64,000 bases of DNA from an uncultured Candidatus Peribacteria bacterium (GTDB lineage: Bacteria; Patescibacteriota; Gracilibacteria; RBG-16-42-10): assembly GCA_964514565.1 (NCBI GenBank), contig CAZERA010000003.1, positions 25,221 through 89,220 of the forward strand. The letters are read 5' to 3'. Shown one piece after another: positions 15,043-60,163 of the stretch. Position 1 is the stretch's first letter. Each line of letters starts with the position of its first letter. The notes under the pieces are model-generated. The model saw only the letters and a program-made list of their open reading frames with translations. It was not told where the DNA came from and did no database searches. The position numbers were made by a program, and so were the translations under genes.

Positions 15043-16236
15043 ATGAAACGTATTTTTAGTACATTGTGTGTGATGGGTATGTTGATTCCCGCCCAACTAG
15101 TATTGGCAGATACTTTCACTGCCCCTACTATTCCTGCCGGCACTATCTCTGATCAAACAAGCAAAGAAATCACTGATGTTTATGCGTTGATCAATGGAGC
15201 CCCAATCACTTGTACTGCTGATTGTCCTAGCTGGGAACAAACTGAGACTGATTTGAAAGATGCAAAAAGCAAAGTAGAACATTTACTAGATACTTTGGAT
15301 AGCCAAGCTAAAGTAATGGTGCCCGAATTGACTAATCTAGCTATCAACAAAAACGCCTTTGAGACTATGGTTCAAGGTGCCAATGGTGAAACTCGCGCTG
15401 AGTGTCCTGCTACTGGAGATTTAGTGTTCCATTTTGAAAGCCTTGCGTATTGTTTTGATCGTAGTAGCGATGTGGATGGTCTACTGACCTCACTATCAAA
15501 CTACGGCCAGAATAAACCTTCTAGTACACCAACTCGTTCATTTCTAGTCATTCTCAATATTCTCACTGATCTATCAAACCTATCTCGTCAGGTCAATGCT
15601 AATGTACTGGCTGCTACGCAAGCTAAAGCAGCATGTGCTAACAATGTTTTAGATACTCGCTGTACAGTCAACGCGCTCAAGCAACCTCGGATTGATACAC
15701 ATGAGACTGGTACTTTGCTTTTCCAAGATGTGCAAGATCACTGGGCTGGACAGTATATTCAAACCTTATTTGCCAAGGGTATTATCAAAGGACGTACTGC
15801 GACCACCTTCGCCCCAGACTTATCAGTAACTCGAGCTGAGTTGCTCAAAATGGTTATTTTAGCGACTGAAAAAGATGTTAGCCAATTCACTACTCGTGAT
15901 ACTGGCTTTTCTGATGTGCCGCATAGTCATGATCTTTCTGTTTATGTCACCTATGCTCGTTTGCAAGGTTGGGTCACAGGTCAAAATGGTTTATTCTATC
16001 CAGATAGACCGGTCAGTAGTTTTGAAGCAATCAAAATTGTCTTCAATGCCTTTGGTGTAGCTCTCGGTTCTAGTGAACATTCTACTTTGCCTGGGGTACA
16101 GGATGGTGAACAAGCAAAATATATCGAGACTGCTCGGATCAGAAATCTGACGACCTCACCTGATATGCCTCAGCTTCGTCCAAACGAGCCAATTTCACGC
16201 GCAAATATCGCTAGAATTATTGCGTCCCTTTTATAG
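15043..16236 (+). CDS. Secreted SLH-domain envelope protein
   Basis: Signal peptide MKRIFSTLCVMGMLIPAQLVLA. The C-terminus carries SLH repeats (FQDVQDHWAGQYIQTLFAKGIIKG...FAPDLSVTRAELLKMV; FSDVPHSHDLSVYVTYARLQGWVTG). Confidence 0.8.
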   Translation: MKRIFSTLCVMGMLIPAQLVLADTFTAPTIPAGTISDQTSKEITDVYALINGAPITCTADCPSWEQTETDLKDAKSKVEHLLDTLDSQAKVMVPELTNLAINKNAFETMVQGANGETRAECPATGDLVFHFESLAYCFDRSSDVDGLLTSLSNYGQNKPSSTPTRSFLVILNILTDLSNLSRQVNANVLAATQAKAACANNVLDTRCTVNALKQPRIDTHETGTLLFQDVQDHWAGQYIQTLFAKGIIKGRTATTFAPDLSVTRAELLKMVILATEKDVSQFTTRDTGFSDVPHSHDLSVYVTYARLQGWVTGQNGLFYPDRPVSSFEAIKIVFNAFGVALGSSEHSTLPGVQDGEQAKYIETARIRNLTTSPDMPQLRPNEPISRANIARIIASLL

Positions 16237-40957: not shown

Positions 40958-43900
40958 TCAATGCTGGTCAGCACTAGAAATGCTACCAGCATTTTTTGCT
41001 GTATGCTCTTTCAGTTTGTTGATCATCTCTACTATTCCCACATATTCACCGCGGTTGAAGGTGTTGCTGACTGTTACTTGTGGAATGACTACATCAACAA
41101 GTGGTGGATTGAGTTGATAAGATAGCGAGCTAGAGTCGACCTGGTCTCTTTCTAGCGTGCGACTTTTTTGTAAGTGGTCGTACAATTTCATACCAGCTGC
41201 AACGTTGATGGACTTGTCTGGATTAGTAATTTGTTCTAAAAGCGCATCATCTAATGCTTCATATTCTTTTGGAGTTGGTTGATGTGCTCTTAACAAAAGC
41301 TCAGCTGTGTCGATTTTTTGAGCTTGTTTGTCGAAATTTTGGGCATCGAGGGTTTGGATCAGTTCTAGTAGGCGATTTAGAATAGTCTCTTTGGTATGCT
41401 CGGCTTCCAAGCGAATACGAGTTTTATTCTCGATTTCTTGCAGTTTTTCTTCTTCATCAGCTTTATCTACAAGTATATTGGACAGTTCTTGGGTGAGTGA
41501 CTGAATCAAGCTCTGTCTTTCATCCGCATCACCAATCTCGTCAGCCTGGCTGATTCTTTTTTGTAGTTGTTCAATTTCCTTTTCGAAAGGAGCCAATTGT
41601 GCTTTTCGCCACTCTTGAAACCAGCCGGGATTGCGAATCTTTAAAGCCACAGTCGCAGGTAAAGATAATCGTGACCCACTAATTGCGCTAATTGTAGTTC
41701 TTTCTTCAGCGGTACCTTTAAGCTGTGCTGCAGTGTAGTTTGCAGTGATTGGTGTACCTGCTGGCAGATAGCTCTCTACAGGAATACTTTTTAGTCCTTC
41801 TTTCGTAGTAGTAACAGCTTCTACTTGATCATCTACTAGCAAAACATGATTTACTGTAGTGGTGTTTTCAATGCCGCTCAATGCTTGTAATCCACTTGCC
41901 ACATATGCTTCATAGTTGGTTTCAGCAGCAGCACTTTTGGCTTTTGGTTTGAGAGTCCACAGACCGGTTTGGATTGGTAGACTTTTCTGACTATCATCGA
42001 CAGTTTGGTGGTTTGTAAGTGTATATCCTAGTGCTTGCGTATGTGGCGCAGTTTTTAAGATAGACCAGCCTTTACTAGTCAGTTGTGCCTGATCGGCAAA
42101 TACGCCAGTAGCATATGCATCGACAATCTCTGCAACAGGTAGGCGTTGATAAGTCTGGGTATTGATATCAAAGTGAAATACTACTAATTGGGCTAAGTCA
42201 TCAGGTTCAGCTCGGTGGTCTACTATGGCTAGTAGTCTAGTCTCATTAGCTTTGAGTACAACCCGTAGAGCTTTTCTTTCTGCTGCTTTTTCTCGTCTGG
42301 TTCTGCTACTGAGCGAGTTGACGATATCATTGAGCGCTCGGGGTCTAGCTAGGCCAGGTTCTATCACTATTGCCTCATCCCTGCTAGGTGGTGGGGGAGG
42401 AGTAGAATCTGTTAGATCTCCCACCGGTGCCGCAGCTTGGTTGTTTTTTTGTCTCACTAAAAACTGATGAGCAACATAGAGTCCGAATGATGCTAACTGC
42501 TCTTTCTCATCATTGGTCAGAGCTGGTTCTAGCGCAGCAAAGCACTCTGCATGTAGCATTTCACCATCTTTAAATACCAGCTCAATACTGGTCATGCTTA
42601 TTCCACGACTATGCTTTGTTTTGTGAATGAGTTCGACTACAAAGGAAGCTGGATTGCTGCTATCACTTTGATCAGGTGTAAGCCTATAGCCTGTTATTTC
42701 GCTATCAGACTCATCAATTGTAAATGTTTTTGGTTCCAATAAGCCAATGCTTACTTGGGCAGCTAGGTCAGTTTTGAGTTGTTGCTTGTCTACTACACCA
42801 GAGGTTTGTGCTGCTTCTTTAATTAAATTGCGGTAGTGAGCACCCGTACTCTGTTTTCGCCAAAAATTCTCTATACCAAGTTCAATCTCCTCGACAGAAA
42901 TCATACGGAAGAACTCATAGTTGCTTTGTAACGCGGTGGCTATTACTCCACTGTCACAACTAATTTCCATGCCTATTTCTGGCCAAATGTCTTTTCTTCT
43001 AATTACCTTTTCTACTATAGCTTCTGCTCTAGCACCATGTAGAAAGTAGGAAAAAAAGAGTGTGCATCGCTCCACCAAGCGGTGATCATTAAAACTTTCA
43101 CTAGTTGGGAAAAACTCTTTACTCAACTGTTCGCAGAGGTCAGCTCGTTCAGCCGCTGGCATAATCTGTATGTATGCACGTAAATATACAGTAGCTATGC
43201 CTACATTGTATGGATCAGGGCTTTCACGGAAATGTTTGATTACTTGAGCTCTAATCTTTGCTGACCGTCTCATCATCTCACCTTTGCTATCAAGCTGTTC
43301 TACTTTGAAGCCTCCAATCCCCCCCGGTAGAAAACCAGTTTGATCTGTAGACAAATATTCCTCCATGAGCGCGACATTGGTCGTAATCAGTTGGGGATTT
43401 TGAGCAGTTTTGTCTTCTGAAAACCAATTGTAATATGTACAAAAGTATTCAAAGTCGCCATGCTCGCGAGCTTTTTTAGCAATAATCTCGGTATTGGCAG
43501 CTATTTTTCTTGTTAATTCTTTACCAAAGGTACTGGCTCTGGCTTGCTCAGTCGATATATAGAGGTTACTAACTGCGCCTAAAACAATGGACCACCGACG
43601 ACAATAAAACCTTCGGTCTTTGCTCAATCTGTCTAATTCATTCAAAAGTAAAAGCCAACCTTGGGTGACCTGATTTCCTCCTGGTCTCTTACTAATGGCC
43701 ACTAATTTCTCAGCTACAAGTCTTTGCTCGCTATTACTATCTACTTCAACTGTCGGTGAGTCTTTTTCTTTTCTGGCTGCGGCAAGTAGTAATTTATCCG
43801 CGATGTTAAAAGGGTTTTTAAGTGTTCCTATTGCTGGTGAAGCAGTGCTGAGGATGATTACTAGATCGTGATCAAATGCTGCTAACTTGTCAGGGTAATA

Positions 43901-45589
43901 GGTAGCCACAAATGCTCTAGCTTCTGGACTAAAGAGTAGATGTGCTTTGGTGTAAACATTGAAAGCTTGAACTGGTTTGTCCTGCGAAAGTGCTACTTTG
44001 ATCGCTGTATGCACATAACTTTCTGGTGATGTGTCATCTTCAATTGCACAGAGAATATTCTTTTCACGGATTCTTTTAGCTCTGTTTTTTTCCGTACTTT
44101 TCTCGTCAACTCCTTGAATAGTTTTGATTGCTAATGCTGTTTTATCTAAAGTGATGCTGGTAGGTTCTACTGGTTGAAAAAACTCCAATAAATTTCTGCG
44201 TGGGTCTGCGCCTGTTTCTCCTGAAGGAATCAATTTCACTGCATCTTCCACTGCTGCTTTGAGTACATCAGTATTGATGAGCGTAAAGTAGACAAAATTT
44301 TGTTGGAAGTTATCCACTACAGCTTGGACAGCACGTTTCTTTGTATCTATCCCTCGTTGTTGTACGGTTAGATCTTTATTGATTAAAGCTTTTACCGCTG
44401 CTTGAGCAGCTATATGTGGTGGTACGCATACTTTGAGTAGAAGCTGTGCTTTATTTACTAGTTGCAGATCATTGACCGTGGTTGGAGTGGTGAATACTGC
44501 TGTCAGGAAATGTTCTACATGTTTTTGTTGTGCTGATTCATCAGCTAGTTGGATGTAGTGTCGCCAAACTTGGGCGGCATAGGCGGCTATCACTGGATCT
44601 TTTCCAGCGAAAGAAGTGCCGAAGTAGCTGAGCTGTTCATTGGAGTCAGCTAGTGAATCCACAATGCATCGCGGTAATGTGGTATGCCAGAGGTGTACTT
44701 CCGCTGTATTTCGAGGATCTTCTTCAATCATTTGCGCAAACATGCCGGCACACCATTGCGCGAATTTTGGTACTTGGTCGATCGTTTCGCCTAAGCCGGC
44801 GATTGCTATACTGAGTGCACCTTTGGTTTTTACTGTCTTACTGATAGTAGCTTGGATTCCAGCGTCACTAGTGATTGTATCTATAGCCGCTGCAGCTAGA
44901 TCTGGTGTACATATTGGATGGCGTAGTAATAAATTGACACCAATCAAAACACTGGCGATTGCATCAGTTCGTTGATGTGGTTCATGCAGTATTACTTGGT
45001 TGAAAAGCAGTTTGATTTCTGCTTTTAAAGTAGCTTGCTTAATTGTCTCGCTATTGGCTAATTGGCATATGGATATTAGTACTTCTGCCATTTTTTCAGC
45101 TAGAGCAGTTTTTGCTACATGTGAGCTTAAATCTTGCGGCTTATCAAAGAGATCAGAGGGATTGATTGGTTCCTGTTTCTTTTGTATTAATGCTGCGTTT
45201 CTAGTTTTGGCTGCTCTATCTTCTAGGGTATAGATACCAATATTGAGTGGGTCTAAAAAACCGCTTGTTTCACCTGTGCTAATTTTCTGATTGTCACTAG
45301 CAAAAGCTTCAAGTATATCTGGTGGCAGATATGGATAATCTACTTTTATATCTCCACCCCAAAGTAACATCGGGTAGTAAGGGGTAAACAAAAGAGGGTG
45401 TTCCAGTGGTCTTGCCAAGACTGCCCGGAGACATTTCATACCAAACTCCTCAGGAGTACCATGATCTAGTAGTCGTAGATCATCACTGTTTCTTACATGC
45501 TTTAGCTCACTGTATTCCTTACCACTGAGTACTAGGCGTCTCTTTTCCTGAGGATCGGGGATTAGGCCATCGTCTAGAGTATCTCTCAT
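40958..45589 (-). CDS. Giant hypothetical protein (1543 aa), no domain recognised
   Basis: Uninterrupted 4.6-kb ORF. It has a long helical central part, a PPPPP linker and a C-terminal coiled-coil-like acidic segment (EKEIEQLQKRISQADE...EEEKLQEIENK). It appears monocistronic. Confidence 0.8.
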   Translation of the reverse strand: MRDTLDDGLIPDPQEKRRLVLSGKEYSELKHVRNSDDLRLLDHGTPEEFGMKCLRAVLARPLEHPLLFTPYYPMLLWGGDIKVDYPYLPPDILEAFASDNQKISTGETSGFLDPLNIGIYTLEDRAAKTRNAALIQKKQEPINPSDLFDKPQDLSSHVAKTALAEKMAEVLISICQLANSETIKQATLKAEIKLLFNQVILHEPHQRTDAIASVLIGVNLLLRHPICTPDLAAAAIDTITSDAGIQATISKTVKTKGALSIAIAGLGETIDQVPKFAQWCAGMFAQMIEEDPRNTAEVHLWHTTLPRCIVDSLADSNEQLSYFGTSFAGKDPVIAAYAAQVWRHYIQLADESAQQKHVEHFLTAVFTTPTTVNDLQLVNKAQLLLKVCVPPHIAAQAAVKALINKDLTVQQRGIDTKKRAVQAVVDNFQQNFVYFTLINTDVLKAAVEDAVKLIPSGETGADPRRNLLEFFQPVEPTSITLDKTALAIKTIQGVDEKSTEKNRAKRIREKNILCAIEDDTSPESYVHTAIKVALSQDKPVQAFNVYTKAHLLFSPEARAFVATYYPDKLAAFDHDLVIILSTASPAIGTLKNPFNIADKLLLAAARKEKDSPTVEVDSNSEQRLVAEKLVAISKRPGGNQVTQGWLLLLNELDRLSKDRRFYCRRWSIVLGAVSNLYISTEQARASTFGKELTRKIAANTEIIAKKAREHGDFEYFCTYYNWFSEDKTAQNPQLITTNVALMEEYLSTDQTGFLPGGIGGFKVEQLDSKGEMMRRSAKIRAQVIKHFRESPDPYNVGIATVYLRAYIQIMPAAERADLCEQLSKEFFPTSESFNDHRLVERCTLFFSYFLHGARAEAIVEKVIRRKDIWPEIGMEISCDSGVIATALQSNYEFFRMISVEEIELGIENFWRKQSTGAHYRNLIKEAAQTSGVVDKQQLKTDLAAQVSIGLLEPKTFTIDESDSEITGYRLTPDQSDSSNPASFVVELIHKTKHSRGISMTSIELVFKDGEMLHAECFAALEPALTNDEKEQLASFGLYVAHQFLVRQKNNQAAAPVGDLTDSTPPPPPSRDEAIVIEPGLARPRALNDIVNSLSSRTRREKAAERKALRVVLKANETRLLAIVDHRAEPDDLAQLVVFHFDINTQTYQRLPVAEIVDAYATGVFADQAQLTSKGWSILKTAPHTQALGYTLTNHQTVDDSQKSLPIQTGLWTLKPKAKSAAAETNYEAYVASGLQALSGIENTTTVNHVLLVDDQVEAVTTTKEGLKSIPVESYLPAGTPITANYTAAQLKGTAEERTTISAISGSRLSLPATVALKIRNPGWFQEWRKAQLAPFEKEIEQLQKRISQADEIGDADERQSLIQSLTQELSNILVDKADEEEKLQEIENKTRIRLEAEHTKETILNRLLELIQTLDAQNFDKQAQKIDTAELLLRAHQPTPKEYEALDDALLEQITNPDKSINVAAGMKLYDHLQKSRTLERDQVDSSSLSYQLNPPLVDVVIPQVTVSNTFNRGEYVGIVEMINKLKEHTAKNAGSISSADQH

Positions 45590-49954: not shown

Positions 49955-50476
49955 ATGAATAACAGAACTAAATTTTTTGGTCATGAGAGGGCTCCAGTTT
50001 CAGCAACTACAGGTAGACCTTCATCCATTTTATTTCATCTCAACGAGTCACTAGAAAGATTAGTATTGGCAGAAGGACCAGATGTTACTCTATCGCGAGC
50101 TATGATGGCACAAATTTTAAAAGGTTTTCAATCAAGGTCAGTTGCCTATTCTTTGGAGACGGCATCAGGACAAACCTTTGATTTCGTTTTCATTCCTGCC
50201 AATAAAATGAGCAGGTATGGAGCAATTCAAGTGACTGAACGGATTACACCAGGTCGGTCCCGTTTAGTATGGCGTATGCCATTTATCACTCCAACAATAC
50301 TAAACGACGGCCTCACTCCAGACGCGAAATTAGCAATCTATACTATAGATGCGCAAGATGAAATGTTGTTGCGTGATCTATTCAGAAAAGAACAAACAGC
50401 ACAAAGAGAGAAGACGTACAAAGTATTAAATTTTGCCGGCCCTGGTTCTGCGCAGTCAGGACAATCAAGTCTATAA
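49955..50476 (+). CDS. Hypothetical protein (173 aa)
   Basis: ORF only. Its 3' end overlaps the convergent EVE gene by 6 nt. Confidence 0.55.
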   Translation: MNNRTKFFGHERAPVSATTGRPSSILFHLNESLERLVLAEGPDVTLSRAMMAQILKGFQSRSVAYSLETASGQTFDFVFIPANKMSRYGAIQVTERITPGRSRLVWRMPFITPTILNDGLTPDAKLAIYTIDAQDEMLLRDLFRKEQTAQREKTYKVLNFAGPGSAQSGQSSL

Positions 50477-50878
50477 ACCGCTCATAGAGGTAATCGCGTG
50501 ATAGTCTGCTTCGCTAATAGGAATAACTGAAAGCCTGCTATGTTTCACAATTAGCATTTTGCTTAGGGTAGGATGCTCTTTTAGGGTAGCTAAACTCACG
50601 GGAGTGCCTAGTTGTTTTTGGGCTCGAATATCGACACAAACCCAATTGGATTCTTCTGTCGTAGGATCTTGGTAAGCAGGTTTGATTACTTCAGCAATGC
50701 CCACGATACTTTTTTCATCACCACTATGATAAATGAAGCAGATATCTCCTTCTTTCATGGCGCGTAAGTTGTTGCGAGCTTGGTAATTACGTATGCCAGT
50801 CCAAGCCGTATGTTGGTCTTTGAGCAGATCTTGCCAGCTATAGGTAGATGGCTCAGTTTTGAGAATGAAATAATTCAT
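50471..50878 (-). CDS. EVE (PUA-like, DUF55) domain protein
   Basis: MNYFILKTEPSTYSWQDL......W.GIRNYQARNNLRAMKEGDICFIYHSG....IVGIAEV is the canonical EVE pattern. Confidence 0.8.
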   Translation of the reverse strand: MNYFILKTEPSTYSWQDLLKDQHTAWTGIRNYQARNNLRAMKEGDICFIYHSGDEKSIVGIAEVIKPAYQDPTTEESNWVCVDIRAQKQLGTPVSLATLKEHPTLSKMLIVKHSRLSVIPISEADYHAITSMSGL

Positions 50879-51009
50879 AGGGGCAAATTAACAATTTACA
50901 GTGATCAATTTACAATGAGAATTTGAAAGCGCAAAGATTCACTCTATAAAGAAGATTGCACTGCCAATTTGGCTGAAATTCTGCTACAATAAAAAGAATA
51001 CAAAAAAAC

Positions 51010-52629
51010 ATGTCCCCTGATAGTCACGATGACATTAGCGAAACACTCCGGCCAGTTCAGCCCCAAGCTAATAAAGATAAAGCTGAGCTAGGGACTGCAG
51101 ATGCGGCACAAGAAACTGTTCATCTTGTTTTGGATGCTTTGCGCGGCCTTGATGCAAAGGCCAATGTCCCGACTGATACTTTTATTGGAGGTGGTGCAGT
51201 TGGACTGATTGACCCAACACAAGTGGAGAAACTTATTAAGCTTGACGAAGAAGCACACGCTGTGCCATTGGTACGAAAAAAGGATAAGCTTGTTGCTCCT
51301 GAAGTTTCAGCTGAACCTCCTTCAAAAGACGTGATTGCTCAAGCAGTTGAGAAGCGAATGACTCTGGAAGAAGCTGAACGGTTTCGTAATGCTCGAGCTG
51401 TACAGCTGCAGTATGTTTTAGGCTTAGTTACCAATCAGAGTCCAACAAATCATTTTGATTTAGCCCACCTTTTAGCCAATGCTAAAAGCCATTGTCCAGA
51501 CTTTAGCCAAGAAGAGCTTCTGGCTATGATAAACCAGCATGATTTGGTCCGTAGTAATCTGCATCTTCAGGGAGCTTTAATTACTGGTGGCAGAAAAGTA
51601 GTAGAAGGTCCTGACCATAAGCCCGTCAGCATTTTTAGTATGAGGCTGCTAGGACAAGGTGGTTTAGGAAAGGTGACTGATGCTTATTTGCTTAAAGACG
51701 CCATGTTTGTACCTGCGGTAGTGAAAGAATCTCATCAGTGGGAAATTGACCCCAAAGATCCTGAAGCTCCAGCTAAAATGAGACAGAATCAGATTTTTCA
51801 ATCCAATTTCTTGGTGGAAATGAACAATGCTATCGACTGTTTACAGCATAATGTTCCTGGGATGATCAGGCCGTTGTTGGTAGTGCCTGGGAACGGTGCT
51901 GATGAAAGCTCACTGATAGCTTATGAAAAGATTGCTAATAAAGATGGAGAATCTTTAGACTTCGGGTATTTAGCTACTGATCCACGCTTTTTAATTTCAA
52001 AAAAGGTAGCTGCTTTTGCTGGTGCTGCTACTATTTTGGCGGATTTACATGCGTCGGGTAGAGCTCACTTAGATTTCAAACCAGAGAATGTAATGGTAAA
52101 TGAAAAAGGGGAGCCGATAATAATCGATATTGGTAGCAGAATTGCTTTAACCGATGAAGTTCATGTCGATCCTGATGCTGACCCAAAACCTTATGGCAGT
52201 ATTACTAAGCGCTTTGATTATGGTATGCAAGGACTAGGATTTACGCCTGATATGGTACCACTTGCTAGAGTAAAAAATGCTTTAGGACAAGGCAAAGGTC
52301 TAGAAGTGATAGATCGTATCGCTTTAGGTAATAGTCTTGTTACACTGTTGCAATATGCCAATTTTCTGACTAATCCTAATTTCCCAGATTTAATTTCCTA
52401 TCAGAAATATTTCAACCTACCAGATGATCAGTATCCACCGCAGTCGCTAAAGGATATGCTTGCGCTAGCAGCTGAATTGCGCGATATTGATTCTGATACG
52501 CCACTCCGATCACTACGAGTGATTGCAGATGAGATTCGACTAATTGCTACCCGTTTTCAGCTAGATCTTGATTTGTTACAAATTGAGGTCGGTAAACAAC
52601 ACAATATAGTGCTTAAATCTGATTTATAG
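51010..52629 (+). CDS. Hanks-type Ser/Thr protein kinase with a ~200-aa N-terminal region of unknown function
   Basis: G-loop LLGQGGLGKV, Lys in PAVVKES, catalytic loop AHLDFKPENVMV and IIIDIGS (DFG equivalent). Confidence 0.75.
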   Translation: MSPDSHDDISETLRPVQPQANKDKAELGTADAAQETVHLVLDALRGLDAKANVPTDTFIGGGAVGLIDPTQVEKLIKLDEEAHAVPLVRKKDKLVAPEVSAEPPSKDVIAQAVEKRMTLEEAERFRNARAVQLQYVLGLVTNQSPTNHFDLAHLLANAKSHCPDFSQEELLAMINQHDLVRSNLHLQGALITGGRKVVEGPDHKPVSIFSMRLLGQGGLGKVTDAYLLKDAMFVPAVVKESHQWEIDPKDPEAPAKMRQNQIFQSNFLVEMNNAIDCLQHNVPGMIRPLLVVPGNGADESSLIAYEKIANKDGESLDFGYLATDPRFLISKKVAAFAGAATILADLHASGRAHLDFKPENVMVNEKGEPIIIDIGSRIALTDEVHVDPDADPKPYGSITKRFDYGMQGLGFTPDMVPLARVKNALGQGKGLEVIDRIALGNSLVTLLQYANFLTNPNFPDLISYQKYFNLPDDQYPPQSLKDMLALAAELRDIDSDTPLRSLRVIADEIRLIATRFQLDLDLLQIEVGKQHNIVLKSDL

Positions 52630-52637
52630 ATATTTTT

Positions 52638-53219
52638 ATGATCAATACACCATCATCAATTCCACCCGTGCAAACACCTGAGGCTTTAGCCGCAGTAAAA
52701 CGAGTAACTACTCGTATAGCAGTGACTTCAGTTTTGGCCGCTGCTGGTAATCAGCATGATCAGTTGCAAGAAATATCTTTGTCAGACTATCAAGCTGCAG
52801 TTTCTGCTGCCCCCAAAAGACTTTTGAATCCTGCGAGTTGGGCTGGTTTCTTGGCGAGATTTTCTAAGAGGCCTCTTCCATTTGGTGCCATGCCGGGTAG
52901 TAGTAAATCAAAGATTGATTGTAGTCAGTATGTAAATGGTGAATATATTTTGGCTATACTTCCCACCGACCTCAATGGTGTGGCTTGGAATGAAAGAGAC
53001 ATTGCTGCTGGTGAGCAGTTTTGTTTCCAACCAGCTGGTGGCAATCAGTTGGCCCAAGTAGCCAGTATTTTGCCAGCAGCTGTTCGAGCTGCAGGCACAT
53101 TTCAATTACAATTTTTGCCCGGTGAGGACAAAGCAACAAAAGTAACTGCTGCTCTCCAAACTGCGTACGGAAGGATTCAAGCTTTGACACTTGGTAGCGA
53201 GGGGACTGCTGCAGCTTAA
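52638..53219 (+). CDS. Hypothetical protein (193 aa)
   Basis: ORF starting 8 nt after the kinase stop. No motif recognised. Confidence 0.55.
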   Translation: MINTPSSIPPVQTPEALAAVKRVTTRIAVTSVLAAAGNQHDQLQEISLSDYQAAVSAAPKRLLNPASWAGFLARFSKRPLPFGAMPGSSKSKIDCSQYVNGEYILAILPTDLNGVAWNERDIAAGEQFCFQPAGGNQLAQVASILPAAVRAAGTFQLQFLPGEDKATKVTAALQTAYGRIQALTLGSEGTAAA

Positions 53220-53319: not shown

Positions 53320-53394
53320 GCCACTTTAGCTCAATGGTAGAGCAATCGCTTTGTAAGCGAAAGGTTGTCGGTTCAAGTCCGACAAGTGGCTCCA
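53320..53394 (+). tRNA. tRNA-Thr (anticodon UGU)
   Basis: Hand fold: acceptor GCCACTT/AAGTGGC, D arm GCTC-AATGGTA-GAGC, anticodon arm ATCGC-TTTGTAA-GCGAA (one A-A mismatch), T arm GTCGG-TTCAAGT-CCGAC, encoded CCA followed by a T-run. Confidence 0.85.
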
Positions 53395-53477
53395 TTTTTA
53401 TAAAATACGTATTGAATCGAACTAACTATTATCTTCAATAAGATAATGATAGGATTCTTTCGATTAAATCCCCATCT

Positions 53478-54137
53478 ATGAATCCTAGGGTTGCCGCTTG
53501 CATAATAATGGTCACTGCTTTTTGTGGTGTCTTGTTAGCACCACAGACCGTACTTGCAAACACCTATTCAGATGTTGCTTCTAGCGACGCTGACTTTGCA
53601 GCAATTAGTAGCTTAACGAACTGGGGTGTGATATCGGGAAGTGAAGATGGCCAGTTTCATCCTGATTCACCTCTGACTAGATGCGAACTTGCGAAAATTG
53701 CAAGGTTAGCGAATGCTCACAGACCCAATGGCCAGTTCTTACCTTTAACTGGTAGTGGTGAACCTCAAGAATTTTCAGATATTCCTACCAGTCATTGGTG
53801 TCACCATTATGTCCGTGAACTGAAATACCACAATGTGCTTAACGGCTATCCTGATGGCACATTCAGACCCAACCAAAAAGTCACTCAGATTGAGGCCTTG
53901 AAAATTTTAATCAATAGTCTGAAAGCAGGTCCACTACAGGAGGACTTTATCAATAATCGCTATACTGATGTACAAAGTACTGACTGGTGGGCACCGTATA
54001 TTCAACATGTAATGGTATACCGTCTTACATATGGCCACGATGAAGCGAGTTACGGAATTGGCAAATTAATGTCACGGCGTGAAGCGGCAAGAATCACCTA
54101 TAATCTTTTGCAAATTTTCGATTACAGCTCTAACTAA
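53478..54137 (+). CDS. Small secreted protein made of three SLH domains
   Basis: Signal peptide, then YSDVASSDADFAAISSLTNWGVISG, FSDIPTSHWCHHYVRELKYHNVLNGYPDGTFRPNQKVTQIEALKILI and YTDVQSTDWWAPYIQHV. Confidence 0.8.
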   Translation: MNPRVAACIIMVTAFCGVLLAPQTVLANTYSDVASSDADFAAISSLTNWGVISGSEDGQFHPDSPLTRCELAKIARLANAHRPNGQFLPLTGSGEPQEFSDIPTSHWCHHYVRELKYHNVLNGYPDGTFRPNQKVTQIEALKILINSLKAGPLQEDFINNRYTDVQSTDWWAPYIQHVMVYRLTYGHDEASYGIGKLMSRREAARITYNLLQIFDYSSN

Positions 54138-54181
54138 ATATCCTTATAGTTATTTAGCTTTTTGTCATTCTGATAATTTCT

Positions 54182-54628
54182 TTATTTGCCAAGTGTAGAT
54201 AGTTCAGCATTTTTTACTGCCCATCGATGGAATTCGTGTGCTGTGGATTGCAGAAATTCGTTTGGGTCAATCCACAAGACCTTATGATCTGCTTCTAGTC
54301 CTTTTGACTGTCCCTTTTTGTGCTCCACTGTGCATCGAAAATATGTACCTATTTTGTTGATAGGCCCAAGATCTGACATCGGAAAGAACTGGTTGGCATT
54401 GCCAATTATGTGGTGATCAATAACGGTTAAGCCTGTTTCTTCCTTGATTTCTCGTATTACAGCAGCAACAGGATCCTCTCCGTTATCGATTCCTCCGCCT
54501 GGCAAGTGGTATCTACCACGAACAAAAACTACCAGTAATTTTTGGGCTTTGTTGGTAATTACAGCATACGCACCAGGTCTATCTTTGAATTCACCTATTG
54601 GTGTGCCAAACTGTGGCGTGGTAGTCAT
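54182..54628 (-). CDS. NUDIX hydrolase
   Basis: Nudix box LPGGGIDNGEDPVAAVIREIKEETGL. 148 aa. Confidence 0.8.
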   Translation of the reverse strand: MTTTPQFGTPIGEFKDRPGAYAVITNKAQKLLVVFVRGRYHLPGGGIDNGEDPVAAVIREIKEETGLTVIDHHIIGNANQFFPMSDLGPINKIGTYFRCTVEHKKGQSKGLEADHKVLWIDPNEFLQSTAHEFHRWAVKNAELSTLGK

Positions 54629-54755
54629 GGGAAAGGAGTTGAAATTTTAGAGACTGTAGAACATGGCTTGGTCCTAGTCAAAATTCTAGTTCAAGCTATT
54701 ACACTTATTATATGTTGCTAGTATTACGGTGACTGAGTGTTGGTTTTGCTACAGC

Positions 54756-54905
54756 TAAGGATGATAAATGAGCTCTTTAACTGTGACTTCATCAGTGCAT
54801 TGGTTTCGGACCCTACTCCATCTTACTGACCGCTGCCTTAAGGGTTCGACATGGAAATGATACAAAATGTTACTTTGCTCACAATCTTCTCCATTTTTCG
54901 GCATA
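54756..54905 (-). CDS. Unannotated small ORF (49 aa), member A of a repeated small-protein family
   Basis: My translation is MPKNGEDCEQSNILYHFHVEPLRQRSVRWSRVRNQCTDEVTVKELIYHP. It falls below the 60-aa cutoff of the ORF track. It is homologous to the copies at 56879..57038 and 58260..58424, with substitutions concentrated at codon third positions. Confidence 0.4.
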
Positions 54906-55001
54906 CGCAAGAGAGAATACTTATACTTTAGTATAGGTTTCTTTGAGTGAGAGATTTATATTGCAAAATCTGTTAAAATGTAATGAACTAATTATTTTGC
55001 T

Positions 55002-56804
55002 ATGGATCGGGAGAAGAATAGAGAAAGTAATCATTCATCTGCACCAGATGATCGTGGAATCACGCGAAGAAGATTTTTGGGTGTACTGGGTGCTGCATTA
55101 GCGGCTAGCTGTAAGCCAAATGATAGACCCTCGGTTCAACCTAGAGCTCAACATCCCCATGTTGTTCCAGCTGTTCCACCAACTAGAAACGACGAAATAC
55201 CGAATACCTTCCAGCCAGCTCCTGACAACGAGCGTGAGACTATGCGCTATAATGACTGGCCACAGTCAACTCTTAATCCAATTGAACGCGCTGAAGCCGA
55301 AGCACGAGTACGGGAATTTATTGAAAGACTCAATAGATTAGATGGTGAGATTTTGAGGCAATTTGGTATTCGTAGCGGTATTGGTGATATGAGGCATTAT
55401 AGTATGAATGAACTACCACCAGATCCTCGATTCAACCCGGTGCGGGATATCCACGATACTTTGGAAAATCTCTCTATGTCCGAACAGGCACGTGTTAGAG
55501 CAATGGTGTCTAGCAGTGATGTTCTTGCCAGCTTTGAAAGAGTGAGTGTTGATATTTTTCGTTTGAAGGATACAGATTCATTTTGGAGAATTTTAACTGT
55601 ATTTGCGAAGGGTAATTGTGAGAGACGAGCTTTCGCTGCTGTAGCACAATATGAACGAGCTCATAATATCAAAATGGTCATGCCTCGAGATGACTTCTAT
55701 TACTCAGCTAGACTAAAGGACTATGTACCTACTGGTAATGATATTTATAGTCAGGATATTGATCCAAGAAATATTTCCGGTCGGTCAACTGTATTTGATA
55801 GCGCAGAGCTAGATAGTCTTAATGCTCATCCAGGATGGGCAGGTAGGAGAAGACAACGACAGTTTAGAGAATTAGCAGGAAATGAAGCTATTGTGCAGTT
55901 AGCAAAAAATTCTGATTTTACTCTCGCTGAGTACTTCTCGTTGATTAAAGCAATCATTCATAACCGAGAACTTGCGCCAACTAATGTTAGGGAGAACGAT
56001 ATTGTTATTGCTCAGAGACTAGTCGCAGCTAATAGAGAGTTCGCTGAATCATCTCTTCTGGATCATGAGACCGATGCGGTAATTGTTTTCCATGGTTCTG
56101 ATCATGAGCACTGGGGAGACAGCCTTACAATTCCTGGTAATCATTTGGGGCGAGCTGATGACTCTTGGGATAAAATTGCAGCTGCTGCTGGTGTGTCTAG
56201 AGGTAAAGTCCATCGATTTGGAGCCAATCCAGAGCGTCAAGGGCCGAACCAGCTACCAGCTCTCTATAGAGCAATGAGTCATTCGAGAGGAAAGACGTTT
56301 GTCGCTTTTGATACACATGGTGATACTGATTATCTACAAGTTGATGATAGAACTCCTAATATGAAGCTAACTCCTGCTGATCTTGCTCGGTCTTTGCTTG
56401 ATCGTGTAAGGGCAATGCAAGATCCAGAGACTTTAGGACAAATGACATTATGTATGGAGGCTTGTTATACCTATGATTTTACTCATAATTTACTTCAAGA
56501 AATGCAGAGGCAATGGACAGCTGATGCTGCTTCTATTTGTGCCTTCGCTAACCTAAAATTACCTACCATCATTATTCCAGTACAAGAAGGATCTTACGCG
56601 GCACATAATTTCAAAGCTTTCAGAGTGCTACTCAAACAGTTAGTAGGTATCAGACGTGACCGAGGAATAAAAGGGGAGCGCATCCTTAAGAATGTCCAAC
56701 CAATAGGTTATCGAGAGCATGATTTTACCATCTTCACTTCAGGTACTGGAAAAGTCATCGAAATAGCTCAGAGAGACAGAAGCGCGGATGCAAGAGAAGC
56801 TTAG
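55002..56804 (+). CDS. Tat-signal lipoprotein with a C-terminal clan-CD (legumain/C13-like) cysteine-peptidase-like module
   Basis: The N-terminus GITRRRFLGVLGAALAASC combines a twin-Arg motif with a lipobox Cys. Later come AVIVFHGSDHEHWGD, FVAFDTHGDTDYL (His-Gly) and, 49 aa on, MTLCMEACYTYDF. These parallel legumain VVIVAGSNGWYNY / FTDHGSTG / FYIEACESG. Confidence 0.45.
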   Translation: MDREKNRESNHSSAPDDRGITRRRFLGVLGAALAASCKPNDRPSVQPRAQHPHVVPAVPPTRNDEIPNTFQPAPDNERETMRYNDWPQSTLNPIERAEAEARVREFIERLNRLDGEILRQFGIRSGIGDMRHYSMNELPPDPRFNPVRDIHDTLENLSMSEQARVRAMVSSSDVLASFERVSVDIFRLKDTDSFWRILTVFAKGNCERRAFAAVAQYERAHNIKMVMPRDDFYYSARLKDYVPTGNDIYSQDIDPRNISGRSTVFDSAELDSLNAHPGWAGRRRQRQFRELAGNEAIVQLAKNSDFTLAEYFSLIKAIIHNRELAPTNVRENDIVIAQRLVAANREFAESSLLDHETDAVIVFHGSDHEHWGDSLTIPGNHLGRADDSWDKIAAAAGVSRGKVHRFGANPERQGPNQLPALYRAMSHSRGKTFVAFDTHGDTDYLQVDDRTPNMKLTPADLARSLLDRVRAMQDPETLGQMTLCMEACYTYDFTHNLLQEMQRQWTADAASICAFANLKLPTIIIPVQEGSYAAHNFKAFRVLLKQLVGIRRDRGIKGERILKNVQPIGYREHDFTIFTSGTGKVIEIAQRDRSADAREA

Positions 56805-56878
56805 TTCTACCTCCTACCTCAGCTATTGAAGTAGCTCAATATATTGAACGAGCATTGAACCACGACGAGAAGCCCTAA

Positions 56879-57038
56879 TTAGGCAGCTTCTTTATAATTC
56901 CATTCTTTCACCACTACTTTATCAATGCCTTGATTCTTTGTGCCATTCCATCTCACTGATCGCTGTCTCAAGAGCTCGATATGAAAATGGTACAAAAAAT
57001 TACTTTGCTTACATTCTTCTCCATTTTTTGTGTTTCAT
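56879..57038 (-). pseudogene. Member B of the small-ORF family, disrupted by a +1 frameshift in an A6 run
   Basis: The open frame NTKNGEECKQSNFLYHFHIELLRQRSVRWNGTKNQGIDKVVVKEWNYKEAA* has no start codon. An ATG at 57038..57036 (ATG AAA CAC AAA AAA TGG...) comes into frame if one A of the run at 57024..57029 is removed; copy A has A5 at this position. Confidence 0.45.
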
Positions 57039-57122
57039 AATGAGCTTATTAATATCGCCTAGGCTGCCTGTATAAGAGTAGTTGTGATATAATTACTAGA
57101 ACAGTAGTTACACATCAACGTT

Positions 57123-58055
57123 ATGTTAGACGAACAGGAAGAACAATTGGAAAAAGACTTCGAGACCTTACGAGCAACGCGCGATCGAAAAGAGCGTGAA
57201 GCATTGCGACATCTTTTCATGGAGCGCCTGGCTAGTTTGCGAGAGTTTCCTATTCACAATGCAGTAGTAAGGAAGTACCTGCGTTTATTAATGCGAGATG
57301 GAGAGCTGGAGCGAGAGGTAATGAGAAAGTCTGTAGTAAGCGAATTGGGGATGCTTGATGCCATTAAGCTGCATAAAGATGAACAAGCTCGTCTGGAAAT
57401 TTTCTATGGCAAGTATGCCAAATTATATGAGGCGGATACCGAAGCAGCATTAGCTTTTGGTGTGGATAGAACTGATGCACCTCCTTGGGAGGCAATCAAA
57501 GCGAGCATCACACCGCGAATGATAAGCTTGATAGAAAAGCTCCCCGAGAAACGTCTTATTGTTGTAAGAGCATCGCGTCAGGACCTGATTGCTGCCATAG
57601 ATAGCCGAGTGGACAGCTATGGTATTAGAAGCAATAGCTCTATATATGAAATTACTGATGATCAATTATGGAATAATGGGGAGCGTGAGGATAGCATTAA
57701 TTGGCAGGTGTTGTTTATTGATGGTCGAGAAGATATTCCTTATGATAGAACTGTACAGAGCGGTAGGGCCGGTGACCAAGTACTTGCATTGCAGGCTCAA
57801 TATAAGGCTCAAGGGTACAGTATTTTAACAGGGGCACAGGCGTACTTAGGATTACAAATGCAAGGATTGGTTAGTGGCGTAATGATTGATTCGAAGTCCC
57901 ATACTGTACTAAATAGTGATGTCGTAGCAGCTGACCAGGAAGCTTTTCTCGGTAGTGGTCATTGTTACTTTGGCCAGGTCGCCTTTACCTTCAGTTATCC
58001 GCGCATGCCGGAGATTAATCTTCATCTGCGTCGTGTGGTTAGAGTGAATCGTTAA
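57123..58055 (+). CDS. Hypothetical protein (310 aa)
   Basis: ORF with a charged helical N-terminus. No motif recognised. Confidence 0.65.
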   Translation: MLDEQEEQLEKDFETLRATRDRKEREALRHLFMERLASLREFPIHNAVVRKYLRLLMRDGELEREVMRKSVVSELGMLDAIKLHKDEQARLEIFYGKYAKLYEADTEAALAFGVDRTDAPPWEAIKASITPRMISLIEKLPEKRLIVVRASRQDLIAAIDSRVDSYGIRSNSSIYEITDDQLWNNGEREDSINWQVLFIDGREDIPYDRTVQSGRAGDQVLALQAQYKAQGYSILTGAQAYLGLQMQGLVSGVMIDSKSHTVLNSDVVAADQEAFLGSGHCYFGQVAFTFSYPRMPEINLHLRRVVRVNR

Positions 58056-58092
58056 TCTTTGATCTTAGTGTCTTGTTTTTTTAAATTCTGCT

Positions 58093-58116
58093 CTCTTGAT
58101 TGCATCAAGAGTTTTT
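58093..58116 (+). terminator. Rho-independent terminator after CDS 57123..58055
   Basis: 8-bp stem ctcttgat / atcaagag with a 3-nt loop, followed by TTTTT. Confidence 0.6.
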
Positions 58117-58259
58117 GGAACGAGTCCAATTGGGAGATAGTTACCTGAATATAGACTCTGCTTAGTGTTCTTTAGGTAGTAAGGGGAGTAGAGACGACTA
58201 CCTTAGCTATTGAATAAAATTAACACAGTGAGGGGGGCGCTGAACTATGGTTTGAAGCC

Positions 58260-58424
58260 TCATTTGGTGGTCACCTTGTAATTACATTCTTTAATCACCA
58301 CCTCATTGACACATTGATTCCTGCTACTATTCCACTTAACAAATCGCTGCTTTAAGAGCTTGACGTGAAAGTGATATAGAAAATTACTTTGTTTACATTC
58401 TTCTCCACGAGTCCCCCCGCGCAT
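58260..58424 (-). CDS. Member C of the small-ORF family (54 aa); its first six codons come from the adjacent insertion
   Basis: My translation is MRGGTRGEECKQSNFLYHFHVKLLKQRFVKWNSSRNQCVNEVVIKECNYKVTTK. The ATG lies inside the palindrome gcATGc at 58422..58424. Confidence 0.35.
   Translation of the reverse strand: MRGGTRGEECKQSNFLYHFHVKLLKQRFVKWNSSRNQCVNEVVIKECNYKVTTK
58387..58407 (+). repeat. Left 21-bp direct repeat flanking the four-helix-bundle cassette (ctttgtttacattcttctcca)
   Basis: Matches 58938..58958 (ttttgcttccattcttctcca) at 18 of 21 positions. Both match the uninterrupted copy B sequence ctttgcttacattcttctcca. Confidence 0.7.
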
Positions 58425-58429
58425 GCGGG
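58416..58429. repeat. GC-rich palindromic hairpin, family member 6 (cccgc-gcat-gcggg)
   Basis: Located at the left edge of the inserted cassette. Nearly identical to the copy at 46076. Confidence 0.6.
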
Positions 58430-58576
58430 AGGCGAGTCTCTTTCCTATCTCCTAGCTCCTTTTCCTCATCATACAGCCTGTCGGACTCAAGGACAGAGGA
58501 ACGAGGAAATAGGAAATAATCGCTCAGAGAGAATTTCATAAATTAGTTACTAAAATGTGACTGAGTAACTTTTAGT

Positions 58577-58936
58577 ATGTTCATTTTCGAAACATTTCCT
58601 GTATATCAAAAGGCTGAAGCTATATACTCTGAGCTGTTATTAATTCTGCCTTCTCTCAAAGATAAAGTTCTTTCGGATCAATTGCGGCGTGCAATGACTA
58701 GTATTGTGTTAAACATTGCAGAGGGTAGTGGGAAGTTTAGTCCAAAGGAAAAGAAGAATTACTATTTAATCTCTCGAGCCCCGGTAAGTGAATGTGTGGC
58801 TATTTTGAGATTGCTTCATCTTCAAAACGTGATTTCTGAACTGCAGTTAAATTTATGGAAAGAAGCATTTTTAGTAATCCATAAAATGCTCAGTGGGATG
58901 ATCAAGACTTTTTCACAAAGTAAAAGAGATACTTAG
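58577..58936 (+). CDS. Four-helix-bundle protein (23S rRNA intervening-sequence protein / Avd family)
   Basis: 119 aa. FPVYQKAEAIYSELLLILPSL....L.DQLRRAMTSIVLNIAEGSGKFS.KEK..YY.ISR.S..EC.. is the canonical signature of this family. Confidence 0.85.
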   Translation: MFIFETFPVYQKAEAIYSELLLILPSLKDKVLSDQLRRAMTSIVLNIAEGSGKFSPKEKKNYYLISRAPVSECVAILRLLHLQNVISELQLNLWKEAFLVIHKMLSGMIKTFSQSKRDT

Positions 58937-58937
58937 A

Positions 58938-58958
58938 TTTTGCTTCCATTCTTCTCCA
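58938..58958 (+). repeat. Right 21-bp direct repeat flanking the four-helix-bundle cassette
   Basis: Begins 1 nt after the four-helix-bundle stop codon. See 58387..58407. Confidence 0.7.
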
Positions 58959-59038: not shown

Positions 59039-59713
59039 TCAATTACTTGATTTATGAAAAAGTTTTCTGTACTCCACATAAGAATAAACAATGGTGATAA
59101 TTGCAATGATCACTACAGGAGCAATGATCAATAACATTGCTATACCACTTGGGAAAAGTAGACCTAAAAGAGAAATTAGAGCGGCAAGTTTAAAGAGTTT
59201 CCCACCAAGTTTGTGAGTCTTTTCCCAAACTACATCGCTAGAAAGAGTCCATGGTGTGCGAATGCCTACAAACCAGTTGCGTTTTGATTTTTCAATTACT
59301 ATTCCGACAAAGTACCAAAGAACCACCATTGCAGGGATGATTGCAGTACTAAAGTTAAAGCGCGTACCCAGATTCCAAGCTATTTGCAAACCAAAAATGT
59401 ATAAAAGAAAGAGAAATCCCACGATCCAGAAATAATTGTAGTATTTTCTAAAAGATTGGATATTGGATTTTTGAGGATCAATTCGAGGCACTATCCAGTA
59501 AATCAAGAATAGTCCAGCGAGCAGGATAGGCAAAAAGAATACACCCCAAAACTTAGTCATATAGCCATTCACTTCTCCTGCAGCATTCCAATGAGAGGCC
59601 ACTTGATCAGGAAGTTGGGGATAGAAAATTACCCCTACCACAAGAGCTATAGCTATAAGTAGTAAGAGAATAATATTGGTGACTTTGTTCACTGGATAGG
59701 GAGTTAATAGCAC
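59039..59713 (-). CDS. SdpI/YhfL-family membrane protein with a DUF1648 N-terminal domain
   Basis: YPQLPDQVASHWNAAGEVNGYMTKFWGVFFLPIL is the DUF1648 pattern. Further TM helices and the W..THKLGGKLF motif of the SdpI family follow. GTG start. Confidence 0.7.
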   Translation of the reverse strand: MLLTPYPVNKVTNIILLLLIAIALVVGVIFYPQLPDQVASHWNAAGEVNGYMTKFWGVFFLPILLAGLFLIYWIVPRIDPQKSNIQSFRKYYNYFWIVGFLFLLYIFGLQIAWNLGTRFNFSTAIIPAMVVLWYFVGIVIEKSKRNWFVGIRTPWTLSSDVVWEKTHKLGGKLFKLAALISLLGLLFPSGIAMLLIIAPVVIIAIITIVYSYVEYRKLFHKSSN

Positions 59714-59791
59714 TGAGGACCTATGCTGTGCTTAATATCCTTATCATAGTAGAAAATATGCTATAACAAAAGTACCAAGTCGCTTAAATTT

Positions 59792-60163
59792 ATGAATACA
59801 TTATTGTGGAAAGATGCTTTAGGGTGGGGATTTTTTCTTTGGCTTATTGGATATATTCTAGGAATAGCCTTCTTTTTTGTACTTCCAACTTCAATAATAG
59901 GGTGGGTAATTATGCCTATTGGTCTCCTGATTACGTTGTGGGTATTGCTTAAAAAAGTGAAGATGACTACTTTGAGAAATTATTTATTCTTAGCAGTAGT
60001 ATGGACATTGATAGCTATGATATTTGACTATCTCTTCATTGTAAAAGTTTTGAATCCAATAGATGGTTATTATAAGCTGGATGTATATTTGTATTACATG
60101 TTAACTTTTCTTATGCCACTTGTAGTTGGTGGTTGGAAAATAAAGCACACCACAAGGCTTTAG
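59792..60163 (+). CDS. Small integral membrane protein (four predicted TM helices), function unknown
   Basis: Strongly hydrophobic 123-aa ORF. Confidence 0.5.
   Translation: MNTLLWKDALGWGFFLWLIGYILGIAFFFVLPTSIIGWVIMPIGLLITLWVLLKKVKMTTLRNYLFLAVVWTLIAMIFDYLFIVKVLNPIDGYYKLDVYLYYMLTFLMPLVVGGWKIKHTTRL

Follow-up and report, generated by a model that had tools for sequence, protein, structure and literature searches.

Repeat modules downstream of tRNA-Thr

We analysed a stretch of 64,000 nucleotides (nt) from an uncultured Candidatus Peribacteria bacterium (contig CAZERA010000003.1; hereafter the window), in which a short repeat on the minus strand recurs beside different genes downstream of a threonine tRNA gene. 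A repeat search detected a family of three copies of 150 nt (54744-54893, 56874-57023 and 58258-58407) that are in register and share 65-73% identity, as well as a partial fourth copy of 22 nt just past the gene at 58577-58936. Sensitive blastn and tblastn searches found no further copies in the 64-kb window. An initial annotation of the window had described three related copies, each upstream of a different gene. They are present where it placed them, their minus-strand peptides read exactly as quoted there, and about 100-170 nt separate each copy from the start of its own plus-strand gene downstream (at 55002, 57123 and 58577).

The copies belong to longer modules. The first ~25 nt of the repeat (TGGAGAAGAATGTAAACAAAGTAA), which we term the core, are nearly invariant, synonymous sites included. 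At the other end, a short motif that follows a variable tail (CAATAGCTGAGGTAGGAGGTGA, termed Block 2) closes a module of ~210-225 nt. The initial annotation had pointed to the near-invariant start and to upstream sequence shared by copies B and C; the latter is Block 2, which reads ctacctYagctattgaa in both. The tRNA gene and the modules are the following:

53320..53394, plus strand: tRNA-Thr(UGU), found by ARAGORN and Rfam; its 3' CTCCA end is the proposed chromosomal attachment point (B arm)
54686..54893, minus strand: module A, with the core (proposed P half-site) at 54870-54893, a conserved block of 40 codons at 54773-54892 and a stop codon at 54755-54757
54686-54701, minus strand: edge of module A, with a weak Block-2-like motif
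56804..57023, minus strand: module B, with Block 2 at 56804-56828, a reading frame without an in-frame start at 56879-57022 and the core at 57000-57023
58198..58407, minus strand: module C, with Block 2 at 58198-58212, a reading frame at 58260-58406 and the core at 58384-58407
58937..58958, minus strand: stub D, what is left of a fourth module (core only), immediately past the stop codon of a gene that encodes a four-helix bundle

Of the 24 positions of the core consensus, stub D agrees with 19, whereas a shuffled control gave no match at six or fewer mismatches.

Signature of translation in the repeat

Differences between the three window copies are most frequent at third codon positions, with pairwise counts of 12/9/20, 13/11/25 and 9/6/21 at codon positions 1/2/3. 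The excess of synonymous change that the initial annotation had noticed is thus strong and seen in all three pairs. Further statistics of constraint were calculated from the ungapped 40-codon block of 13 copies from the window and from related loci (see below). Column entropy is 0.45/0.26/0.92 at codon positions 1/2/3, and the median ratio of nonsynonymous to synonymous substitution rates (dN/dS) is 0.09-0.10, with dS near saturation. None of the 13 copies contains a stop codon in the repeat frame, whereas each of the other five frames is interrupted in 8-13 of them. Even for the closest pairs of copies, whose flanks differ on both sides, pN/pS is 0.13, which fits independent captures from active elements. 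The results support the earlier proposal that the repeat evolved as a translated sequence under purifying selection. AlphaFold2 models the peptide as a three-strand beta-meander with moderate confidence (mean predicted local distance difference test, pLDDT, of 79), and a Foldseek search of this predicted fold against the PDB returned nothing with an E-value below 0.3.

Copies and arrays in other Peribacteria

Using back-translated pattern scans, we detected further copies in three metagenome-assembled genomes (MAGs) of Candidatus Peribacteria (loci L003 and L005, and L004 with four copies), on a metagenome contig with three copies (L006) and on two short contigs (L001/L002); a copy in locus L007 was found later. 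The samples with L007, L001 and L008 (see below) are ERR14369873, SRR25018348 and DRR545329, respectively. In total, the repeat is represented by 13-14 copies from seven Peribacteria loci. At every locus, the modules lie on the same strand at distances of 1-3 kb and form arrays of one to four copies. The genes between them vary by locus and include Fic, a KAP NTPase and many genes of unknown function. The organization as a cassette array or hotspot with variable cargo, which had been proposed from the window alone, thus extends to other Peribacteria.

The modules were found only in a variable island 3' of tRNA-Thr(UGU), with constant polarity (window, L003, L004, L005 and L007). In the window, this island begins at 53395, the first position after the tRNA. 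Homologues of a kinase-like gene of the window led to three syntenic loci (L007, L008 and L009), and the homology of the window to these loci ends at 53394-53397. Locus L008 has the same flanks as the window, with other content and without a module; nucleotide homology between the two is lost at 53395 and is back at about 61414. The window island is absent or replaced in both L008 and L009. Furthermore, homology breaks between genomes fall inside a module or at its edges. The identity of 95.6% between L004 and L006 stops 55 nt into the block, and module B is 91.6% identical to the L001 module over 225 nt, with unlike flanks on both sides. The region from module C to the four-helix-bundle gene has 82-86% nucleotide identity with L003, L005 and L007. 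In comparison, the kinase-like protein of the window is only ~26% identical to its counterparts in L004 and L005, which suggests horizontal movement of parts of the island.

Junctions at the tRNA and the large serine recombinase

On the coding strand, the homology between the copies begins in every case exactly at TGGAG; tRNA-Thr ends in CTCCA, its reverse complement. At module A, the junction reads CTCCA|TTTTTCGG. The alternative flanks that follow this motif are the same beside the tRNA and beside the modules. In locus L007, whose left flank has 79-85% nucleotide identity with the window, the tRNA is followed by a gene for a large serine recombinase (LSR):

L007, 7641-7715: tRNA-Thr
L007, 9370-7694, minus strand: LSR gene of 558 amino acids (aa), directly after the tRNA and on the opposite strand

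The protein contains the Pfam domains Resolvase (PF00239, 5.7e-38) and Recombinase (PF07508, 6e-15), and its catalytic domain matches serine recombinases in the PDB (Gin DNA-invertase, the gamma-delta and Tn3 resolvases and the TP901-1 integrase). The last 22 nt of the gene are the antisense of the tRNA end, such that the protein ends in ...KRPSDSQKDGN|GATCRT*. The reading frame crosses this junction as xxT|GGA, in phase with the module frame, xxT|GGA GAA GAA TGT. In L001 and in the L004 copy L004d, the ~36-40 nt (12-14 codons) upstream of the module are the 3' end of an LSR gene, in frame with the module (...KRPSDSQKDEN|GEECKQSNF...). LSR remnants occur at L009, L004, L001, L004d and L003. 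The window and L005 have modules and no LSR: we found no integrase or transposase encoded in the window, and tblastn with the L007 LSR detected no LSR remnant there.

The DNA inserted in L007 (7716-16043) carries AAA_21/DUF4276 and other cargo and has a module at its end. This module abuts a block of hairpins and a four-helix-bundle gene that directly follows the tRNA in L004 and L005. In the window, the same block follows module C:

58408..58936, plus strand: native sequence downstream of the tRNA (B' arm), with a short GC hairpin at 58408-58440, a long hairpin at ~58440-58521 and a PF05635 gene
58577-58936, plus strand: the four-helix-bundle gene, PF05635 (23S_rRNA_IVP), Avd-like (Pfam 2.3e-19)

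Module C thus ends in an attR-type junction with native sequence that is normally found downstream of the tRNA. Across the loci, the tRNA is joined to the native hairpin (attB type) in L004, L005, L003 and L008 and to the LSR end (attL type) in L007. The module is joined to the native hairpin (attR type) at window module C and in L003, L004a, L005, L006a, L006b and L007, and to the LSR end (attP type) in L001 and L004d. The tRNA|B', tRNA|P', module|B' and module|P' junctions are all joined at ...CCA|. Thus, all four configurations that are expected from one site-specific exchange are present.

The region of L007 between 7694 and 16043 encodes the LSR, small open reading frames (ORFs), a DUF4328 protein and a pair of an AAA_21 ATPase and a DUF4276 protein. 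It looks like a complete integrative element, and the AAA_21 and DUF4276 pair looks like anti-phage defence cargo.

The block, which combines a PF05635 gene with a short GC hairpin and a long imperfect one, recurs at 58408-58936 in the window, in L004 (9504-10020), twice in L005 (8869-9394 and 5412-5999), in L003 (2067-2588) and in L007 (16044-16572); it follows tRNA-Thr in some loci and a module in others. The stem of the short hairpin is kept by compensatory changes (CCTCAC/GTGAGG, CCTCG/CGAGG and CCCGC/GCGGG). As the two copies in L005 share just 51% amino-acid identity, the block may itself be mobile. Another hairpin, a GC-rich palindrome of 30-40 nt that starts with TGGCC, joins the LSR 3' end to the tRNA in L009 (plus strand, 6745-6774) and to the four-helix-bundle gene in L004 (~9463-9503). 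This palindrome could represent a small hairpin element that was inserted there or else another kind of attachment arm.

An integrase gene probably split by its own integration

We propose that each repeat is the severed 3' end of an LSR gene that carries attP within its own reading frame and was split off by integration at tRNA-Thr, a reading that we consider likely. It draws on what is directly observed: the junction sequences, a frame that continues across them, constraint on the coding sequence and the presence of an LSR at a syntenic locus. In self-splitting integrases, attP lies within the integrase frame; here, the frame crosses the junction in L007, L001 and L004d, and the module is start-less and constrained.

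According to this model, Peribacteria would have a family of integrative elements that target the 3' end of tRNA-Thr(UGU). The LSR reading frame would contain the attP site ~45 codons ahead of the stop, and recombination with the tRNA end via the shared core TGG(AG) / (CT)CCA would split the gene. An LSR body of ~550 codons would remain beside the tRNA and gain six codons and a stop from the antisense strand of the tRNA, and the last ~45 codons would be moved to the far end of the element, where they would form a start-less but recently functional frame. The severed end would comprise these ~45 codons, the stop, a trailer of ~70-90 nt and the Block 2 edge motif. The attP-type junction would lead from the LSR 3' end into the module (...GAAAA|TGGAGAAGAATG...), and an empty attB would lead from the tRNA into the hairpin (...CTCCA|CGAGTCC). 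From the observed junctions we infer a full-length integrase of ~600 aa in the free element (...KRPSDSQKDEN-GEECKQSNFLYHFH...), a role of the core as the crossover site and growth of the arrays by successive integration. The invariant first ~25 nt would then be one half-site of attP, and the conserved end of the LSR gene would be the other. Repeated insertion and decay could result in a window with three relics, a stub of 22 nt, trapped cargo genes and no integrase. Its order would be tRNA-Thr, three decayed tandem elements (modules A, B and C), the native hairpin/four-helix-bundle block and stub D. The window is best explained as at least three decayed tandem elements that are without an integrase and have captured cargo.

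Several features of the repeat would follow from such a split. The amino-acid constraint in a start-less frame is expected if the module consists of the severed C-terminal codons of an integrase. The sharp left edge at TGGAG and the fixed polarity to the tRNA would arise because integration at the CCA end of the tRNA splits the gene. The nucleotide invariance of ~25 nt can be explained by a half-site, if this assignment is right, and the lack of protein homologues would result from gene callers meeting only the truncated integrase. Thus, the repeats most likely mark a graveyard of captured foreign genes rather than a new micro-protein. The initial annotation had named the degraded end of a transposase or insertion sequence as one possible outcome for the repeat. 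In spirit this outcome applies, as the repeat is apparently a detached end of an integrase gene.

Several points weigh against an integrase split by integration. The sample comprises only ~9 loci, which throughout come from metagenome assemblies. An intact frame of LSR and module was found in no locus, nor among 5.8 billion clustered proteins or 1.84 billion representatives, and neither an intact gene of this kind nor a free element was found in the phage, plasmid and viral collections searched. The window is without an LSR remnant, and only a T-run follows CCA at the junctions of the tRNA, module A and module B; the model gives no account of how a 1.7-kb gene could have been lost cleanly three times. 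Nor does it account for the growth of an array, given that standard LSR biology bars a second integration into an occupied site. The module of L007 that lies beside the native hairpin could pre-date the LSR element. Lastly, the LSR end in L009 and L004 abuts a GC hairpin that starts with TGGCC and not with TGGAG, and the common core may therefore be just TGG/CCA.

With the proposed split, what looks like an orphan family of micro-proteins would become a legible record of past integrations, and a hotspot of gene capture linked to tRNA-Thr is identified in Peribacteria, a lineage of the Candidate Phyla Radiation (CPR). In related genomes, the limits of captured cassettes can be probed with the repeat core. 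More tentatively, the split might act as a C-terminal switch, in which an integrase of ~600 aa with a conserved beta-strand domain of 45 aa across attP would have this domain swapped at the tRNA-Thr CCA for a 6-aa tail encoded by the antisense tRNA; we regard this as possible but somewhat doubtful. If true, the swap would be a built-in switch of activity or directionality that is set by the integration state, and it would explain the trapping of elements and their build-up into cassette-like islands of captured genes in small CPR genomes. Serine integrases are widely used in genome engineering. A natural integrase with a state-dependent C-terminus would, if it exists, be a testable model of directionality control without a separate directionality factor.

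Alternative explanations

An open frame in all copies with a dN/dS of ~0.1 could also indicate a free-standing gene for a small protein (~45-58 aa, three beta strands), present beside each cargo gene and acting, for example, as a regulator, an excisionase-like factor or an addiction module. The predicted beta-meander would be compatible with this, as would the in-frame start (ATG, GTG or TTG) that is present in some copies and the fact that one copy has been called as a protein of 77 aa (P0001). However, such a start is found in only 6-7 of the 13 copies, and neither a start codon nor a Shine-Dalgarno sequence is conserved across them. In copy B and in L004b, the conserved block is preceded at 2-4 codons by a stop, and no codon between the two could serve as a start. 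The starts in L003, L004a and L006a are the GTG of a flanking hairpin stem, and the same hairpin also adjoins the tRNA, where the module is absent. The in-frame starts of the repeat copies thus look incidental. In profile searches of 5.8 billion clustered proteins, P0001 was the only called protein with the repeat, and its N-terminal 27 aa include codons derived from the LSR; an exhaustive search of 1.84 billion representatives with a hidden Markov model found no homologue of the repeat peptide. The orientation to neighbouring genes is variable (head-to-head in only 9 of 13 copies), and the frame is continuous with the reading frame of the LSR. We conclude that the repeat is probably not a stand-alone small gene, and consider a free-standing protein of this kind unlikely. 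The claim of the initial annotation that the copies encode a free-standing family of ~50 aa placed head-to-head with cargo is thus not upheld, and the peptide that it quoted for copy B has no in-frame start codon.

A different possibility is that the modules are not part of an integrase gene and instead serve LSR elements as chromosomal decoys or secondary attachment sites (pseudo-attB sites that mimic tRNA ends). The CTCCA end and the right-hand flanks are common to modules and tRNA, a count by eye gives 10 matches to the tRNA end among the first 25 nt of the module, and two loci (the window and L005) have modules without an LSR. We nevertheless find decoy sites very unlikely, since they leave the strong amino-acid constraint in a start-less, LSR-phased frame unexplained and since the junctions between module and native hairpin lie exactly where an element-borne arm is expected after insertion between the tRNA and its hairpin. 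The repeat might also be a non-coding recombination or structural element, such as an attC-like site of an integron, a miniature inverted-repeat transposable element (MITE), a tRNA-like RNA or the template or variable repeat of a diversity-generating retroelement (DGR). Arrays in direct orientation between cassettes, a 5' core that is invariant in nucleotides and the Avd-like PF05635 gene close by could be taken to indicate this. Such elements are largely excluded by the coding signal, with its periodicity of 3 nt and dN/dS of 0.1, and we regard them as extremely improbable. The DGR was considered because of the PF05635 gene, which belongs to the native sequence that follows the tRNA; substitutions between copies show no specificity for adenine, and a reverse transcriptase was not found in the window. 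Against an attC site or another single-strand hairpin, the folding z-score is ~-1.5 on both strands, neither IntI nor a tyrosine integrase is encoded in the 64 kb, and the orientation of the cargo is mixed. A non-coding or tRNA-like RNA is contradicted by the lack of an Rfam match at gathering and E-value thresholds, by ARAGORN, which detected no tRNA or transfer-messenger RNA at the repeat, and by an alifold energy within the range of column-shuffled controls. Visual inspection showed neither the terminal inverted repeats nor the target duplications of a MITE, and the copies are gathered at one locus and not dispersed.

Two other ways to translate the repeat were set aside. A peptide of 18 aa in an alternative frame (MEKNV...) has an ATG or GTG in all 13 copies; its codon positions show no coding pattern, and its start is a by-product of the two types of flanks. 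An ATG-TAA start-stop combined with a +1 frameshift from a conserved GGAG is made unnecessary by the upstream LSR frame. Upstream of copy B, the minus strand reads ATGAAACACAAAAAATGG (window 57024-57045), where an ATG is one A out of frame in a run of six A. With five A, copy B would read MKHKNGEEC..., parallel to MPKNGEDC in copy A. The out-of-frame ATG could be due to chance, a homopolymer error or a frameshift mutation.

Comparison to known systems

The closest analogues of an integrase gene split at a tRNA that we compared are the 'suicidal' integrases of the SSV type in archaea (SSV1, pTN3 and pT26-2). In these, attP lies in the integrase frame, and integration into a tRNA gene splits it into int(N) and int(C), one on either side of the element; relics of the gene build up together with captured genes, and the att site is translated as a part of the protein (PMC7253208, PMC8371274). 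The Peribacteria system as proposed here is similar in having attP in the integrase frame, a tRNA target, a split gene, and relics together with captured genes. However, SSV-type integrases are tyrosine recombinases (PF16795) and were reported in 2020-21 to be restricted to archaea (PMC7253208, PMC8371274), whereas the enzyme described here is an LSR in a CPR bacterium. In addition, the SSV-type split gives two inactive pseudogenes (PMC7253208), whereas the Peribacteria LSR body would keep its catalytic and recombinase domains whole, as the split takes only the last ~45 of ~600 codons. Since the enzyme is a serine recombinase and its hosts are Candidatus Peribacteria MAGs, we regard the system as an analogue and not as a member of the SSV type. 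A 2021 review describes self-splitting integrases as exclusive to archaea and to tyrosine recombinases (PMC8371274); an LSR gene that spans attP would, if true, extend the principle to bacteria and to serine recombinases. In a limited literature search, we found no report of a serine integrase gene that spans attP.

Among bacterial systems, an excerpt of a 2025 report on RAP44-like phages of Riemerella describes a 19-bp attP within the integrase gene (nt 25-43), with tRNA-Ser as the target; integration leaves a small detached gene fragment of 43 bp at the other end of the prophage (PMC12169736). These phages differ in that their integrase is a tyrosine recombinase and attP lies at the 5' end of the gene, and arrays of relics are not described in that excerpt. 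In the mycobacteriophages BPs and Brujita, which have integration-dependent immunity, attP lies in a phage gene, according to an excerpt of a study on them (PMC4557955). The split gene of these phages is a repressor and their integrase is a tyrosine recombinase, in contrast to the Peribacteria system. Integration of BPs and Brujita reportedly removes the 3' end of the gene, which alters the C-terminus and the behaviour of the protein.

With the LSRs of phages and islands (phiC31, Bxb1, TP901-1, A118 and the Ccr recombinases of SCCmec), the L007 protein shares the Resolvase and Recombinase domains. As in phiC31-type systems, attP and attB share only a short core, and the B, B', P and P' arms are distinct. 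SCCmec is known for composite tandem islands at one site. To our knowledge, attP lies outside the integrase gene in phiC31, Bxb1, TP901-1, A118 and Ccr systems, and their usual targets are protein-coding genes. In the Peribacteria system, in contrast, attP apparently lies towards the 3' end of the coding sequence, and a tRNA, at its CCA end, serves as the target. The tycheposons and tRNA-linked islands of Prochlorococcus grow by successive integrations at one tRNA that push older elements outward, and harbour decayed elements, pieces of integrases and att relics in repeated copies; LSRs are carried by a minority of the elements (bioRxiv 10.1101/2020.12.28.424599). Their relics are partial tRNAs, whereas the Peribacteria relic is a coding piece of the integrase that shares just 3-5 nt with the tRNA. 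Integron attC arrays are similar in that variable genes are separated by a recurring element at one locus. They differ from the arrays described here, which have no IntI, no attC-like hairpin, a mixed orientation of cassettes and a repeat that is coding sequence.

Cargo genes and neighbouring regions

The genes that are located between the modules of the window are the following:

53395..58197: captured cargo between modules (SLH, NUDIX, C13-like lipoprotein and 310-aa protein), with no integrase left
53478-54137, plus strand: SLH protein, cargo between modules
54182-54628, minus strand: NUDIX protein, cargo between modules
55002-56804, plus strand: C13-like lipoprotein, 600 aa, with a weak match to Peptidase_C13
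57123-58055, plus strand: protein of unknown function, 310 aa, without a Pfam match

The C13-like lipoprotein gene and its upstream region (54934-55302) are 86% identical to L007 (16577-16945). As this gene follows the four-helix-bundle gene in L007 and module A in the window, the order of cassettes is permuted between related genomes. A terminator-like hairpin with a T-run lies at 58093-58111, between the gene for the 310-aa protein and Block 2 of module C, and module C is thus probably outside the transcript of this gene. Scans for promoters and terminators detected no enrichment.

Beyond stub D, positions 59039-60163 encode an SdpI/DUF1648 membrane protein and a membrane protein of 123 aa. 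Both are probably cargo of the island, as they lie within the stretch that cannot be aligned with L008. On the other side, the conserved left flank (50471-53219) is also present in L005, L007, L008 and L009 and encodes an EVE-domain protein, the weakly kinase-like protein of 539 aa and a protein of 193 aa with unknown function, directly upstream of tRNA-Thr. Elsewhere in the window, three very large ORFs belong to no Pfam family (5361-10286, 1641 aa; 10295-12697, 800 aa; and 40958-45589, 1543 aa), and surface proteins with SLH domains are encoded at 15043, 20119, 34748 and 53478.

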